This document shows, one piece after another, positions 1,722-32,362 of a stretch of 64,000 bases of DNA; the first letter of the stretch is position 1; every line of letters starts with the position of its first letter. Source of the DNA: Escherichia phage vB_EcoM_SYGD1; sequence record MW883059; one strand, 5' to 3'. A program made the translations under genes and the position numbers. The notes beneath the pieces were generated by a model, which saw only the letters and a list, made by a program, of their open reading frames with translations, was not told the DNA's origin and did no database searches.

Positions 1722-3976
1722 TTAATGTTATCAAAAGTAGTGGTGTTTCTCAGAGCTTTGACCCGCAAAAAATTATTAAAGTTTTATCTTGGGCAGCTGA
1801 AGGAACATCAGTAGATCCTTATGAATTATATGAAAATATTAAATCTTATCTCCGTGATGGAATGACAACTGATGATATTCAGACTATTGTCATTAAGGCC
1901 GCTGCGAATTCTATTTCGGTTGAAGAGCCTGATTATCAATATGTAGCTGCACGTTGTTTAATGTTCGCTCTTCGTAAGCATGTTTATGGGCAGTATGAAC
2001 CACGTTCATTTATTGACCATATTTCTTACTGTGTAAATGAAGGTAAATATGACCCTGAATTATTGTCAAAATATTCAGCAGAAGAAATTACATTTTTAGA
2101 ATCAAAAATTAAGCACGAGCGGGATATGGAATTTACTTATTCCGGGGCGATGCAATTAAAAGAAAAATATCTAGTTAAAGATAAAACCACTGGTCAAATT
2201 TATGAAACTCCACAGTTTGCATTTATGACTATTGGAATGGCATTGCATCAAGATGAACCTGTTGATAGATTAAAACATGTTATCCGTTTTTATGAAGCGG
2301 TATCTACTCGACAGATTTCATTACCAACTCCTATTATGGCTGGTTGCCGTACTCCAACTCGGCAGTTTAGTTCATGTGTTGTTATTGAGGCAGGCGATTC
2401 ACTGAAGTCTATCAATAAGGCTTCTGCTTCAATTGTTGAATATATCTCTAAACGCGCTGGAATTGGTATTAACGTTGGTATGATTCGTGCTGAAGGTTCT
2501 AAGATTGGCATGGGTGAAGTACGCCATACTGGTGTTATTCCTTTTTGGAAACATTTTCAGACTGCTGTTAAATCATGCTCACAGGGTGGAATTCGTGGCG
2601 GCGCTGCTACTGCTTATTATCCTATTTGGCATTTGGAAGTTGAAAATCTTCTTGTTTTGAAAAATAACAAAGGCGTAGAAGAAAACCGTATCCGTCATAT
2701 GGATTATGGCGTCCAGTTGAATGATTTGATGATGGAACGTTTTGGAAAGAACGACTACATTACTTTGTTTAGTCCGCATGAAATGGGTGGCGAGCTTTAT
2801 TATTCTTATTTTAAAGACCAAGACCGTTTCCGCGAATTATACGAAGCAGCAGAAAAAGACCCTAATATTCGCAAAAAGCGTATTAAAGCCCGTGAACTAT
2901 TTGAATTACTCATGACTGAACGATCAGGAACAGCAAGGATTTATGTGCAGTTCATTGATAATACGAATAATTATACTCCGTTTATTCGTGAAAAGGCACC
3001 TATTCGTCAGAGTAACTTGTGTTGTGAAATTGCTATTCCAACAAATGATGTGAATAGTCCTGATGCTGAAATTGGATTGTGTACTCTCTCTGCATTCGTA
3101 CTAGATAATTTTGACTGGCAAGACCAAGATAAAATTAATGAATTGGCAGAAGTTCAAGTTCGTGCTCTTGATAATCTGTTGGATTACCAAGGATATCCAG
3201 TTCCTGAAGCAGAAAAAGCTAAAAAGCGTCGTAACCTCGGTGTAGGTGTTACCAACTATGCAGCTTGGCTGGCAAGTAACTTTGCTTCTTATGAAGATGC
3301 TAATGATTTAACACATGAACTATTTGAGAGATTACAGTATGGACTCATTAAAGCATCCATTAAGCTCGCAAAAGAAAAAGGACCTTGCGAATATTATTCA
3401 GACACTCGTTGGTCTCGAGGCGAATTACCTATCGACTGGTACAATAAAAAGATTGACCAAATCGCAGCTCCAAAATACGTTTGTGACTGGTCGGCGCTGC
3501 GGGAAGACCTTAAGCTCTTTGGCATCCGTAATAGCACATTATCAGCACTTATGCCATGTGAGTCATCTTCCCAAGTTTCTAACAGTACAAACGGTATCGA
3601 GCCTCCACGTGGACCAGTCTCTGTTAAAGAATCAAAAGAGGGTTCCTTTAATCAAGTCGTGCCCAATATTGAGCATAACATAGACCTATATGATTATACA
3701 TGGAAATTAGCTAAGAAAGGTAATAAACCTTATCTTACGCAGGTAGCTATTATGCTGAAATGGGTATGTCAATCAGCTTCAGCGAATACATACTATGACC
3801 CGCAGATTTTTCCAAAAGGAAAGGTTCCAATGTCAATAATGATTGATGACATGTTATACGGATGGTATTATGGCATTAAAAATTTCTATTATCATAATAC
3901 CCGTGATGGTTCTGGTACTGATGATTATGAAATAGAAACTCCTAAAGCCGACGATTGTGCAGCGTGTAAATTGTAA
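1712..3976 (+). CDS. nrdA: ribonucleoside-diphosphate reductase large subunit (class Ia)
   Basis: 754 aa; GAGGA RBS; active-site NLCCEIA; C-terminal redox Cys pair ...ADDCAACKL. Confidence 0.95.
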   Translation: MQLINVIKSSGVSQSFDPQKIIKVLSWAAEGTSVDPYELYENIKSYLRDGMTTDDIQTIVIKAAANSISVEEPDYQYVAARCLMFALRKHVYGQYEPRSFIDHISYCVNEGKYDPELLSKYSAEEITFLESKIKHERDMEFTYSGAMQLKEKYLVKDKTTGQIYETPQFAFMTIGMALHQDEPVDRLKHVIRFYEAVSTRQISLPTPIMAGCRTPTRQFSSCVVIEAGDSLKSINKASASIVEYISKRAGIGINVGMIRAEGSKIGMGEVRHTGVIPFWKHFQTAVKSCSQGGIRGGAATAYYPIWHLEVENLLVLKNNKGVEENRIRHMDYGVQLNDLMMERFGKNDYITLFSPHEMGGELYYSYFKDQDRFRELYEAAEKDPNIRKKRIKARELFELLMTERSGTARIYVQFIDNTNNYTPFIREKAPIRQSNLCCEIAIPTNDVNSPDAEIGLCTLSAFVLDNFDWQDQDKINELAEVQVRALDNLLDYQGYPVPEAEKAKKRRNLGVGVTNYAAWLASNFASYEDANDLTHELFERLQYGLIKASIKLAKEKGPCEYYSDTRWSRGELPIDWYNKKIDQIAAPKYVCDWSALREDLKLFGIRNSTLSALMPCESSSQVSNSTNGIEPPRGPVSVKESKEGSFNQVVPNIEHNIDLYDYTWKLAKKGNKPYLTQVAIMLKWVCQSASANTYYDPQIFPKGKVPMSIMIDDMLYGWYYGIKNFYYHNTRDGSGTDDYEIETPKADDCAACKL

Positions 3977-4707
3977 TGAATTATCAAAAAATCTATAATG
4001 ACCTAATTTCCCGAGCTCAGGCTCGGGAACATTTATCCGAGTATAAAGAGACACATCATATAGTCCCTAAATGCATGGGAGGTTCTGATGATAAAGAAAA
4101 TTTAGTTGAATTAACAGCTAGAGAACATTTTATAGCGCATCTATTACTATGCAAGATAAATGAAGGCCATTTTGGTCTTGCCTCTGCGTTAACGTTAATG
4201 GCAACAGATAAAGCTGGTAATAGAATTAATAACAGATTGTATAGCTTGCACAGAAAATTATTTGCTAAAGCTAATTCTGATTTCTTTAAGAAATATTGGA
4301 AAAATAATCCTCATCCTAGAGGAATGTTAGGCAAGCATCATAAAAACGAAACTAAACAACATGTATCAAACGTGAATAGGTATGCATGCCCATCTATCGA
4401 AATACATAAATTCTCATTAGATGGGGATTTCATAGAAACCTTTCACTCTATTGCCGCAGCGTCCAGGTCAGTTAATGGAAACGGGTCAAATATCAAATAT
4501 TGTGCTGAGGGTAAATTTCAATATGCCTATGGATTTCGATGGGCATATCAACTTGATGCAAAGTTTGACAAAATACAACCAAGAGATTATAAAGGAATCC
4601 GCGGTAAGAAATGGATTAATAATGGAAGTGAATGCACGCTTATAGGTAAAGATGATATTATACCGCCAGGTTGGAAACGCGGCAGAATTTTAAAGAGGAA
4701 AAATTAA
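3976..4707 (+). CDS. HNH homing endonuclease, free-standing (mobE-like, between nrdA and nrdB)
   Basis: 243 aa; start overlaps nrdA stop (TAATG); HNH motif HHIVPKCMGGSDDKENLVELTAREHFIAH. Confidence 0.8.
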   Translation: MNYQKIYNDLISRAQAREHLSEYKETHHIVPKCMGGSDDKENLVELTAREHFIAHLLLCKINEGHFGLASALTLMATDKAGNRINNRLYSLHRKLFAKANSDFFKKYWKNNPHPRGMLGKHHKNETKQHVSNVNRYACPSIEIHKFSLDGDFIETFHSIAAASRSVNGNGSNIKYCAEGKFQYAYGFRWAYQLDAKFDKIQPRDYKGIRGKKWINNGSECTLIGKDDIIPPGWKRGRILKRKN

Positions 4708-29509: not shown

Positions 29510-29599
29510 ATATGACAAATTATAAAGAAGTATTTAGACTTTTAGCAGAAATGGAAGCATGTTTAAAGCGTGTGCAAGAAATGCGCTTTAAGATGGGGT

Positions 29600-29607
29600 T
29601 ATAAATA
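29600..29607 (+). promoter_or_regulatory. late promoter motif TATAAATA
   Basis: Exact octamer 25 nt upstream of the ATG at 29633. Confidence 0.4.
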
Positions 29608-29855: not shown

Positions 29856-30086
29856 TTAAAAGCTTTCTTCTACTTCATCGTCTGAATCTTCTAATTCAGC
29901 TCTTTTTCCTGCCAAAGCATCTCTCACGGAGATGTCATCAGTATCTTTTAATTCAGTTTCTTTAACTCTTTTCTTATAATAAGCTTCAAGTTCTTCTAGA
30001 CCTTCTAATGTTTGACAAGAGGCAATTTTACCCATAAATTCATCAATAGAAGCTTCATAAAGAAATTGTTTAAATTCTAGTAACAT
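29856..30086 (-). CDS. UvsW.1-like small acidic protein
   Basis: 76 aa from ATG 30086 with GGAG RBS (ORF track start 30098 is a TTG); acidic C-terminus. Confidence 0.6.
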   Translation of the reverse strand: MLLEFKQFLYEASIDEFMGKIASCQTLEGLEELEAYYKKRVKETELKDTDDISVRDALAGKRAELEDSDDEVEESF

Positions 30087-30097
30087 CTTTTTCTCCA

Positions 30098-30113
30098 AAG
30101 GGCCGAAGCCCTT
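30098..30113 (-). promoter_or_regulatory. GC hairpin between the HNH gene stop and the uvsW.1 RBS
   Basis: AAGGGC-CGAA-GCCCTT overlapping the HNH stop codon. Confidence 0.4.
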
Positions 30114-30804
30114 ATAAATTAACTGTTTTTCTAAGTATTCTTAGTTTGTACATTGATAATCCAGTAGCTTTAGAAGCATCTTTCATGCATTTATACTTAA
30201 CACCATTTACTTCTATAGGTTTAGCAGCTGGGTTATTAGCTCCTGAATTATCTGGCATGTTATCTTTAATTTTCTGAATAGATTTAGCGGAATGTTTCCT
30301 TCCATACATGCCATTATTTTTACCTGATTGATTGATAGAATGCAATCTTTTAGCTTCTTCAGTCCATTTTGTTGGGTTCATTCTTTTAGTTTTACTAATT
30401 TTACTTCCCCACGTAATTGGACGATTTTTCATGAGTTTTGACATATATTGTTTATGTTCTTCCGTATGGTGTTTTCCGTAAAATGGATTACCTTCACCTG
30501 ATTGAAGTTTTGCCATTTTACGACGTTCCCAGGCGTAAGATTTATTAACGTGTCTTTCATGAGTATTTGAATTCATTCCCATACATATAACGGCTTTAAT
30601 TATACCGTAATGGTTTGGATGAATTTTAGCTAAAAGTTTATGAGCTATAAAATGCTCTTCAGCTGTTAGTTCTACCAAATTACACTTATCATCTGTACCA
30701 CCCATACATCTAGGAATTATATGATGAGTTTCAGTGTATCCATTAAGGCGAGCCCGATTCTGGGCTCTATTAATTAAATTATCATATATTAATTTATAAT
30801 TCAA
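30112..30804 (-). CDS. HNH homing endonuclease, free-standing, inserted between uvsW and uvsW.1; TTG start
   Basis: 230 aa; HNH motif HHIIPRCMGGTDDKCNLVELTAEEHFIAH; TTG start 7 nt after GAGG and overlapping uvsW TGA. Confidence 0.75.
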   Translation of the reverse strand: MNYKLIYDNLINRAQNRARLNGYTETHHIIPRCMGGTDDKCNLVELTAEEHFIAHKLLAKIHPNHYGIIKAVICMGMNSNTHERHVNKSYAWERRKMAKLQSGEGNPFYGKHHTEEHKQYMSKLMKNRPITWGSKISKTKRMNPTKWTEEAKRLHSINQSGKNNGMYGRKHSAKSIQKIKDNMPDNSGANNPAAKPIEVNGVKYKCMKDASKATGLSMYKLRILRKTVNL

Positions 30805-32312
30805 AGTTTAACCTCTTTCATCACATAATTAAACTTCTCATCAGCATAACGCTGAATACGATCAAGTCCATGTTTTAAAAGATAGTTTAAATGCGAGTAT
30901 TTTTTAGAAGATGTTTTTGATTTAGAAACTACGCCCGCGTCATCTATGAGGTCCCAGACTGTTGCGATTGTTTTAGAACCATGCTTACGTAATACGCGAC
31001 CTATTGTTTGCAATACAATAATTTTAGATTTAACGCCGTGCGCTAAAACAACGTGATGCAGATTTTTAACTGAAATACCAGTAGAAAATACACCATAACT
31101 AGCTACTATAATTATTCCTTTACCGTTTTCAGCTAAGGTTTTCATTATGTTTCGAGTTTCGGTATCAACTTCCCCTGATACGTAATAAACTTTATCGTAT
31201 TCATTTTTAATTAAATCGAAAATAGCTTTACCATGTGATACATGCTTAAACATGACAAAAGCGTTTTCATCTTTTTGCGCAAGTTTAATAGCTAATTTAG
31301 CGATCCATTTATTTCTTTTACTGAGCCCAGTAATAATTTTTATTTCTTCTTGGTAAGTTTTTCCCTTTAATTTAGTAGTGAACTCATCAGGATAACGAAG
31401 AAAAATACTATTAATTTTTAACTCAGTTACTTGTCCATCTTCCATTAATTTAGAAGTCGTTACTGGCTTAAATATTTCACCAAACATTCCAACATACTGC
31501 ATGATATTAGCTTTGCCATCACGTAATGAACCTGATAGACCAAATTTGAACATGCAGTTATTTAAACCTGATATAATAGATGAAATACTTTTTCCTGTAG
31601 CAAGATGGCATTCATCATTCATCATCATTCCAAATTGTGAAAACCATTCTTTTGGTTGTTTTACTACAGTTTGCCATGTACCAACAATTACCGGTGCATC
31701 ATTTTTATATTTATCATCTTTTGATGCTCCGCCACCAATTTTCTTTATCATTGCATGACTGAATAAACGATAATCAACAAAGTCATCAGCCATCTGAGTT
31801 GTCAGAGCAGTTGTTGGAACAATGATAAGAATTTTACCTTCATAATTTTCCAAATAATAACGTGCAAGCAAAGCTTGAATTAAAGATTTACCTGCGGATG
31901 TTGGAAGATTAAGAATTCTACGACGATTAACTAATCCTTCGAACACTGCATCTTTTTGATACCAATGCGGTTCAATTCTTTTATTTCCTGAATAGATTTC
32001 TAACTTAGAAAGCCATTCATCAAAATCTTTTCTTGATAATTCTTCTTTTTCGTTAATTTGTGGGTCAATCCAGGCTTTATAGCCAAAGTTATCACAGAAC
32101 TTTTTAATTTGCCCGACTAAGCCGAACGGAAGAAGGCGATTATAATCTAAAAGACGGATTCGTCCATCCCAGTGACCATATTTGTATTTCGGATTAAAAC
32201 GATACCCATCAGCTTCAAAGCTAAAGAAATCACGGAGTTCATGAAATGTACTTTCTTCACAATCAATTCTCACGTGACTAAAATCATAAAAATGTACTTT
32301 AATGTCAGTCAT
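30801..32312 (-). CDS. uvsW: UvsW DNA/RNA helicase (SF2)
   Basis: 503 aa; MTDIKVHFYDFSHVRIDCEE...; Walker A LPTSAGKS, DExH-like NDECH. Confidence 0.9.
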   Translation of the reverse strand: MTDIKVHFYDFSHVRIDCEESTFHELRDFFSFEADGYRFNPKYKYGHWDGRIRLLDYNRLLPFGLVGQIKKFCDNFGYKAWIDPQINEKEELSRKDFDEWLSKLEIYSGNKRIEPHWYQKDAVFEGLVNRRRILNLPTSAGKSLIQALLARYYLENYEGKILIIVPTTALTTQMADDFVDYRLFSHAMIKKIGGGASKDDKYKNDAPVIVGTWQTVVKQPKEWFSQFGMMMNDECHLATGKSISSIISGLNNCMFKFGLSGSLRDGKANIMQYVGMFGEIFKPVTTSKLMEDGQVTELKINSIFLRYPDEFTTKLKGKTYQEEIKIITGLSKRNKWIAKLAIKLAQKDENAFVMFKHVSHGKAIFDLIKNEYDKVYYVSGEVDTETRNIMKTLAENGKGIIIVASYGVFSTGISVKNLHHVVLAHGVKSKIIVLQTIGRVLRKHGSKTIATVWDLIDDAGVVSKSKTSSKKYSHLNYLLKHGLDRIQRYADEKFNYVMKEVKL

Positions 32313-32341
32313 GTCTAAATACCATGTAATAAATATATCTA

Positions 32342-32349
32342 TATTTATA
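32342..32349 (-). promoter_or_regulatory. late promoter (TATAAATA on - strand) for uvsW
   Basis: TATTTATA on + strand 30 nt upstream of uvsW ATG. Confidence 0.5.
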
Positions 32350-32362
32350 CTGAGGAAATATT

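Follow-up and report, generated by a model that had tools for sequence, protein, structure and literature searches.

A mobE-like homing endonuclease gene at the end of uvsW in T4-like phages: start codon, insertion site and probable mode of expression

How can a selfish endonuclease gene come to lie across the end of a core phage gene, and where does its translation begin once it is there? The question is raised by a 64,000-nucleotide (nt) stretch of Escherichia phage vB_EcoM_SYGD1 (MW883059), here called the window, a T4/T6-like Tequatrovirus segment whose minus strand carries at this locus the helicase gene uvsW (30801..32312, 503 amino acids), a 230-codon open reading frame (ORF; 30112..30804, 230 amino acids and a stop) and the small gene uvsW.1 (29856..30086). 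The middle ORF is a mobE-like, free-standing HNH homing endonuclease gene (HEG), and a sequence-only reading of the window had placed it 3' of uvsW, between uvsW and uvsW.1. Based on comparison with related phages, we consider it likely that the HEG is part of a mobE-type cassette which sits in the end of uvsW itself, starts at a UUG codon, is expressed late together with uvsW and homes into relatives that do not have the cassette.

The TTG start codon and the protein that it begins

The TTG at 30802..30804 (minus strand) overlaps the uvsW TGA (30803-30801) as TTGA and is the earliest possible start of the HEG, as there is an in-frame TAA two codons upstream. A Shine-Dalgarno (SD) sequence, GAGG, is found at 30815-30812 with a spacer of 7 nt to the TTG, so that the start signals described in the sequence-only reading are indeed present. 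When translation is taken from this codon the N-terminus, MNYKLIYDNLI, aligns residue by residue with MNYQKIYNDLI of a paralogue elsewhere in the window (3976..4707), which is mobE and lies between nrdA and nrdB, and the claim of a 230-codon gene aligned with this paralogue from the TTG is therefore upheld. The earliest in-frame ATG encodes M34, which comes after H27/H28, an invariant pair in the HNH motif, and a start at this ATG would remove these two catalytic His residues; the expectation that an internal ATG would cut away the conserved N-terminus was thus correct. Moreover, the stretch before ATG34 (CCTAGATGTATG) has no purine-rich SD.

Comparison of carriers shows that the position of the start is conserved and that the codon itself varies. 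In ten carriers from five genera the start overlaps the uvsW TGA (NTGA) and is followed by AAT TAT/TAC, encoding Asn-Tyr. The start is TTG in Tequatrovirus (the window, T6 and W143), Gaprivervirus (SP18) and Dhakavirus (PSD2002, UP19 and Bp7), GTG in Bragavirus (PM2) and ATG in the Jiaodavirus/Klebsiella phages Nispero and Roth78, and conservation of one position with three different codons supports the TTG start. More distant metagenomic relatives have an ATG at the homologous codon, within the pattern M(N/D)Y..IY..LI. Within Tequatrovirus the arrangement GAGG-N7-TTG is kept in 48/48 copies, and across the 60-mer of the start region the only variation among these copies is a synonymous TAT to TAC change in codon 7, together with a single change in uvsW. 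Over HEG codons 2-11 the proportion of non-synonymous differences (pN) was below that of synonymous differences (pS) in all but one of six comparisons; with SP18 there were zero synonymous differences. The T6 RefSeq entry has the same 230-amino acid coding sequence from the same TTG, named 'homing endonuclease', and the annotations of HY03, EC121, BF15, KFS-EC3 and RPN226 also use TTG. We conclude that TTG is the best-supported start of the HEG and that the internal ATG is wrong, a view which is well supported by these comparisons.

The ORF is not a chance one, because it matches PHROG 655 ('homing endonuclease') at 4e-61 over residues 1-217 and the NUMOD3 family (PF07460) at 51 bits against a cut-off of 20.4, with two stretches matched, of which the best spans residues 94-122 (30439..30525, minus strand). 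The HNH motif lies at residues 23-55 (YTETHHIIPRCMGGTDDKCNLVELTAEEHFIAH; 30640..30738, minus strand; Pfam HNH E 0.008), is matched by profiles and presents His, Asn and His with the usual spacing; in a five-protein alignment of orthologues and mobE, the residues H27, H28, N42, H51 and H55 do not vary. When a profile of five proteins was compared with the PDB, residues 22-55 matched the HNH modules of 6ME0, a group II intron maturase (E 0.003), and 6GHC, which is McrA (E 0.005). Towards the C-terminus, residues 193-218 (30151..30228, minus strand) resemble the helix-turn-helix of the I-TevI DNA-binding domain, weakly so by PF20987 (E 0.03; I-TevI_DNA-bd alone gives 14.7 against 27 bits, below threshold), and the five-protein profile matches the I-TevI DNA-binding domain structure 1I3J over residues 132-224 with an E value of 3e-4. 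Used as a nucleotide probe, the HEG also finds mobE in T4 records. Judged by these similarities, the HEG product is an HNH endonuclease of the mobE-like kind, modular in build, in which the DNA-binding half resembles that of I-TevI.

Full-length orthologues, with 52-69% amino acid identity, were found in 74 records and adjoin uvsW in all cases among the matches listed, and in ten carrier genomes from the five genera the ORF is intact at 226-260 codons with its catalytic residues invariant. At the nucleotide level a 1.7-kilobase region matches 48 phage records, three of them T6, with 97-99% identity. Carriers thus make up 48 of about 750 related records (~6% of Tequatrovirus) and about 700 are without the gene, including T4 and LH2, which confirms that the insert-free relatives expected from the sequence-only reading do exist. 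As a scan of IMG/VR with the HEG protein returned two close copies only, our comparisons were made on GenBank phage records. The labels given to orthologues vary and include mobD (phage PST), mobile endonuclease E (W143), hypothetical protein, GIY-YIG homing endonuclease (Nispero and Metamorpho) and group I intron endonuclease (G28 and G8); for a protein of HNH/NUMOD3 type encoded at the uvsW site, both GIY-YIG and mobD are incorrect names.

A cassette within the end of uvsW and the flank that accompanies it

The insert was defined by aligning the window with T4, T6 and the insert-free Tequatrovirus LH2. It comprises 689 base pairs (bp) at 30127..30815 on the minus strand, although a AAA Lys codon at either end makes the limits ambiguous and 30130..30818 is equally valid. 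In the empty allele uvsW ends ...GTA ATG AAA ACA GTT AAT TTA TAA GGGCTTCGGCCC, in the window uvsW ends ...GTG ATG AAA GAG GTT AAA CTT TGA, and the HEG of the window ends ...CTT AGA AAA ACA GTT AAT TTA TAA GGGCTTCGGCCC. The native uvsW tail, AAA ACA GTT AAT TTA TAA (KTVNL-stop), which is identical to the uvsW end of LH2 and T4, has therefore been displaced to 30112..30129, where, with its frame unchanged, it now forms the final five codons of the HEG and its stop. In its former place there is a surrogate tail, GAG GTT AAA CTT TGA (EVKL-stop; 30801..30815), that is borne by the cassette and holds the SD, and the last four sense codons and the stop of uvsW come from the inserted cassette. The alignment places the cassette five codons before the uvsW stop, not in intergenic space, and by the same comparison it includes the SD, the TTG and the codon at which uvsW now stops. 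The sequence-only reading was right that an HNH-type HEG is found here and that T4 does not have it, but the insertion lies inside uvsW and not between the two genes.

The same design is found in other genera. The native tail is displaced to the HEG end in SP18, PM2, PSD2002 and UP19 as well, and a KEV(K/Q)(L/I)-stop tail goes with the HEG in Tequatrovirus, Dhakavirus and Bragavirus. In JS10, a Dhakavirus that has no HEG, uvsW ends ATGAAACAGGTGGATTTATGA; in PSD2002 and UP19 the HEG ORF ends in exactly this uvsW end of JS10, and their own uvsW ends in the foreign sequence AAAGAGGTCCAAATTTGA. In SP18 and PM2 an identical tail is present on either side of the HEG. Outside the T4-type phages the uvsW.1 ATG overlaps the HEG stop (as ATGA or TAATG), which suggests that the HEG has been threaded into the linked uvsW-uvsW.1 pair via a duplication of the junction.

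With regard to the empty site, the T4 RefSeq entry NC_000866 (sequence L003, 4678-6441) annotates uvsW as a 587-amino acid fusion with uvsW.1, and discrepancies are flagged in the record. Its junction reads TTA-ATAAGCTTCGGCCC instead of TTATAAGGGCTTCGGCCC, and the fusion has been attributed in the literature to a sequencing error. This entry is therefore misleading as an empty site and LH2 and RB69 were taken as the true junction references.

Downstream of the insert there is a UUCG-tetraloop hairpin, AAGGGC UUCG GCCCUU (30098..30113, minus strand). It does abut or overlap the HEG TAA and precede the ribosome-binding site (RBS) of uvsW.1, as had been pointed out from the sequence, but because it is present in the HEG-less LH2 and RB69, and also in T4, it is a native element of the uvsW/uvsW.1 spacer and did not come with the cassette. 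The gene that follows, uvsW.1, encodes 76 amino acids (Pfam UvsW-1, 1.7e-30) and has its own GGAG (30093-30096) and ATG (30086). It is essentially the same as in T4 and LH2, with 0-2 mismatches per 60 nt relative to T4.

The upstream side of the insert is different. Over most of the uvsW body the window and T6 have 0-5 mismatches per 60 nt relative to T4, and over the last ~135 nt this rises, first to 24 per 60 nt and then to 10. LH2 (OQ378934; positions 1801-1945 of sequence L087) has the carrier type in the distal part of this uvsW 3' tract and the T4 type in the proximal ~75 nt and tail. As the T4 type of LH2 extends over the proximal 73 nt, only the recoded flank at 30816..30888 (minus strand), which adjoins the insert, is strictly linked to carriage. 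Compared with LH2 this flank has 10 synonymous differences and one non-synonymous difference in 25 codons, with a pS of 0.74 against 0.06 in the preceding 50 codons. LH2 is a recombinant, and its switch point (at ~30888-30893 of the window) may mark a hotspot of recombination or cleavage. The tract at >=95% identity, the gene and the junction were each counted 48 times, the three sets being matched by number only. When carriers and non-carriers are compared within Jiaodavirus and within Dhakavirus, the final 60-240 nt of uvsW show an increase in mismatches per 60 nt from 0-5 to 10-22, and on the downstream side there is little or moderate change only. Such an upstream-sided asymmetry suggests that the cleavage site is upstream of the insertion point, and we place it provisionally within the conserved ...RIQRYADEKFNYVMK coding region. 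A donor for the flank in another sequenced genus was considered and rejected, as a 78-nt tract is closest to the T4 type (67/78) and no genus matches better.

As judged from these alignments, the flank at 30816-30888 is probably a tract of co-conversion, of target immunity, or of both. Patchy occurrence together with carrier-specific flanks is what homing with co-conversion classically leaves behind, and it is this pattern in the compared genomes that leads us to regard the cassette as mobile.

Proposed expression and homing, and the competing explanations

An exact match to a T4-type late promoter, TATAAATA, is found at 32342..32349 on the minus strand, ~30 nt upstream of the uvsW ATG, its function being assigned by the T4 consensus. 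It is the only exact late promoter nearby on this strand and no exact match was found directly before the HEG. Sigma-70-like matches in the region numbered 16, against 13.8 expected in shuffled sequence, and for this reason none of them was counted as a promoter. We presume that TATAAATA is the source of a transcript covering uvsW, the HEG and uvsW.1, and the HEG would then appear to be without a promoter of its own. Two near-consensus late motifs were observed inside the HEG on the minus strand, one at 30188-30195 (TATAAATG), ~100 nt upstream of the uvsW.1 ATG, and a second at 30791-30798 (TATAAATT), just past the TTG. These could give uvsW.1 its own late transcript or may be chance occurrences in AT-rich DNA.

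Translational coupling of the HEG to uvsW and a low level of expression are plausible and have a precedent in what has been proposed for T4 mobE. A synonymous CTT to CTA change in uvsW would make the HEG start an ATG and TTG is nonetheless retained, as would be expected under selection for a weak start, although this is not proof of it. The Jiaodavirus copies that start with ATG have no SD (AAGACTGTAAAT), and the copies that start with TTG or GTG have GAGG or AGGTGG. This opposition of a weak start with a strong SD and an ATG with none is suggestive, and it is a single contrast. Structure that might mask the SD and start was also considered and rejected, as the minimum-energy fold pairs part of the SD with an ensemble frequency of only 0.003 and the centroid has local hairpins only; folding of the start region gave no stable structure that hides the SD.

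Within the gene there is a stem-loop, GAGCCC-agaauc-GGGCUC (30750..30767, minus strand; nt 38-55 of the HEG ORF). A stem-loop is found at the same place (codons ~12-20, nt ~33-60) in 8/8 of the T4-like mobE-family genes examined, and the eight differ in their stem sequences and in the amino acids encoded. In each gene the stem-loop ranks in the top 0.2-2.5% of the sequence windows scored, with z values of -2.5 to -5.3 in seven of the eight and of -1.4 in Bp7. The stem-loop of mobE itself lies at 4008-4029 of the window, and some metagenomic relatives (L012-L015) have a 5' stem-loop and others do not. A terminator scan called the HEG stem-loop on the opposite strand only, where there is nothing to terminate, and this call was treated as chance.

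We propose the following sequence of events. On insertion of the 689-bp cassette the look-alike tail EVKL-stop would replace TVNL-stop of uvsW, with the RBS of the HEG (GAGG) and its UUG start embedded in this surrogate, and the original uvsW tail, stop and UUCG hairpin would be shifted downstream so that the tail completes the HEG frame. The HEG would be transcribed late with uvsW and uvsW.1 from TATAAATA, and initiation at the UUG may be by ribosomes that have just terminated uvsW, by fresh SD-directed 30S binding, or by both. The weak start, possibly together with the stem-loop 37 nt into the gene, would keep the level of endonuclease low. In a mixed infection the enzyme would nick or cut the 3' part of uvsW in cassette-free relatives, repair would copy the cassette with 60-240 bp of upstream flank, and the recoded flank and interrupted site would protect the carrier genome. 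A further step, which we offer tentatively and hold to be doubtful, is that the cassette acts as an 'expression plus immunity' module in which low initiation is under selection, the stem-loop is a second brake, other than a terminator, and 75-240 bp of uvsW, synonymously recoded and of necessity transferred along with the cassette, mark the distance to a cleavage site upstream of the insertion point.

Several points weigh against this proposal or parts of it. With an SD at 7 nt and no stable mask, independent initiation at the UUG is possible and the coupling need not be the obligatory one that the sequence-only reading had supposed. The UUG could be merely inherited, not selected. There is no poly(U) after the stem-loop in the uvsW-site genes, so the HEG stem-loop is not a canonical terminator. 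The flank might be hitch-hiking donor DNA with no role in immunity. By Pfam HNH (PF01844) the protein scores 16.7 bits against a gathering cut-off of 21.4 and is thus below threshold; this is a short, divergent HNH motif that the Pfam model recognises weakly, which lowers formal membership but not the motif evidence. The gene can also decay, as the BF15 copy (MW822007) is 98.6% identical but gives a two-piece match, is annotated at 588 nt and is frameshifted, and is probably decaying. Finally, our literature search found no paper describing an endonuclease gene at the uvsW site, and a review of T4 mobile elements has only segE at uvsW, the uvsW-site HEG not being among the fifteen T4 endonucleases.

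Decay might be taken further, to the view that the HEG as a whole is an unexpressed remnant in which the TTG is a mutated ATG, and that the ORF persists because it is young or because its deletion would damage uvsW or uvsW.1. HEGs do degenerate, as in BF15, a non-ATG start is unusual and the annotation of W143 avoided the TTG. We nevertheless think this unlikely, given an ORF that is intact with invariant catalytic residues in ten carriers of five genera at 52-69% identity, N-terminal codons with pN < pS in five of six comparisons, and a TTG or GTG that is kept although a synonymous change would give ATG.

It is also conceivable that the HEG has been domesticated and no longer homes, but instead excludes co-infecting relatives or modulates uvsW and uvsW.1, its position and weak start having been tuned for this. 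This would agree with the way in which the HEG is threaded into the linked uvsW-uvsW.1 pair in most genera with the chain left unbroken, and T-even homing endonucleases are known to cause marker exclusion (PMC2988022). However, the patchy spread over ~6% of Tequatrovirus records and the carrier-specific flanks fit active or recent homing and not a fixed useful gene, and we regard domestication as improbable.

A start at M34 would instead yield a nuclease-dead DNA-binding protein with a regulatory or exclusion role. Such a product, of 197 amino acids from the internal ATG, is what W143 annotates, and ATG is the canonical start. Yet the protein sequence of the 33 codons upstream of it is conserved between genera and in mobE and includes H27/H28, a purine-rich SD is not present before it, the T6 RefSeq entry and at least five other records call the TTG, and three different codons are used at one conserved start position overlapping the uvsW stop. 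We therefore consider this reading very improbable.

Least credible of all, and rejected here, is a UvsW-endonuclease fusion formed by a frameshift at CUU UGA, for although GAGG-N5-CUU-UGA superficially resembles the prfB (RF2) +1 site AGGGGG-N3-CUU-UGA with its upstream SD, the +1 frame meets a TAA after three codons (C TTT GAA TTA TAA), the HEG is in the -1 frame with no slippery heptamer, and the orthologues have AUU UGA, UUG UGA or UUA UGA, so that the shift site is not conserved.

Related systems, neighbouring features and significance

The reading that we prefer, that of a homing mobE-type cassette in the end of uvsW, draws on what is known of its closest relative. T4 mobE is promoterless, its start overlaps the nrdA stop and low expression has been proposed for it (PMC2988022). 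An internal hairpin terminator at its 5' end stops 30-50% of transcripts (PMC2790892), and the enzyme nicks its target and co-converts flanks (PMC2790892; PMC2988022). The uvsW-site HEG shares with MobE the nuclease block MNYxxIY...ETHHIxPxCMGG...NLVxLTxxEHFIAH, with 38% identity overall; it is likewise apparently promoterless, overlaps the preceding gene's stop with its start codon (UAAUG for mobE), has a stem-loop ~30 nt into the ORF and is patchily distributed with carrier-specific flank polymorphisms. It differs in that it is found at the uvsW tail and not in the nrdA/nrdB spacer, its C-terminal DNA-binding half is different, it starts with UUG and not AUG, and its stem-loop is not followed by poly(U), to which the mobE hairpin owes its weak terminator activity. 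Furthermore, the HEG replaces the end of a host gene, whereas mobE sits between genes. Hef and other mobE-site HNH endonucleases, as they are cited in PMC2988022, are likewise free-standing and patchy in T4-like phages, but at a different locus.

Other systems share single features. I-TevI of the T4 td intron has in common with the HEG the DNA-binding-domain match (1I3J), NUMOD3 repeats and a modular layout of nuclease, linker and binding domain; however, the catalytic domain of the HEG is HNH and that of I-TevI is GIY-YIG, and the HEG is free-standing whereas I-TevI is intron-encoded. SegE, a GIY-YIG enzyme of T4 that is encoded between inh and uvsW and has its target in uvsW, makes the HEG the second selfish endonuclease on uvsW, and T6 carries both. 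It is of an unrelated family, its gene is found at the opposite end of uvsW, and the window does not have it. Some fungal mitochondrial mobile endonuclease ORFs, for example in Allomyces atp6, carry a substitute 3' end for the host gene. The likeness here is an in-frame insertion near the 3' end of the host gene that supplies a foreign C-terminus and leaves the original tail downstream, although at uvsW the replacement is limited to five codons, the displaced tail serves again as the end of the HEG, and there is no further relationship between the systems.

At the other end of uvsW, the inh/uvsW spacer (32313-32362, 50 bp) is without a gene, as the sequence-only reading had said, and T4 and T6 have segE there. 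Over 32138-32362, in addition to the missing segE, the first ~175 nt of uvsW in the window have diverged from T4 and T6, with 8-17 mismatches per 60 nt, and this looks like a second polymorphic flank, linked to segE. Between uvsY.-1 and uvsY.-2 there are ~98 bp extra (29510-29607) compared with a 28-nt gap in T4 and T6. This segment encodes a 30-amino acid ORF (29512..29604; MTNYKEVFRLLAEMEACLKRVQEMRFKMGL), the stop of which overlaps an exact late-promoter motif, TATAAATA (29600-29607, plus strand), before uvsY.-2. In two of the carriers uvsW is annotated in two pieces, in PM2 (L085, 1-2003) with an 876-nt 'hypothetical protein' ORF between them and in Bp7 (L089, 30-1533) with a ~300-nt gap, and these may be further insertions or disruptions.

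The uvsW-site HEG is an ordinary member of the mobE-like family, and both the gene and its TTG are already annotated in T6 and in many other genomes. What is new is modest, namely the use of a surrogate tail, the presence in several genera of a recoded flank linked to carriage, and a stem-loop that has no poly(U). For annotators it follows that an internal ATG of the kind used in W143 is wrong and that the uvsW tail of carrier phages is not native. With regard to the T-even homing endonucleases, the HEG adds a site-specific family at the uvsW/uvsW.1 junction, found in T6 and in at least five genera. It is also an example of how a gene may enter the end of a core gene harmlessly, by means of a substitute tail that doubles as a translation-initiation region, and its weak start on an overlapping stop, together with the 5' stem-loop, would offer mutable handles on how phages keep selfish nucleases tolerable.

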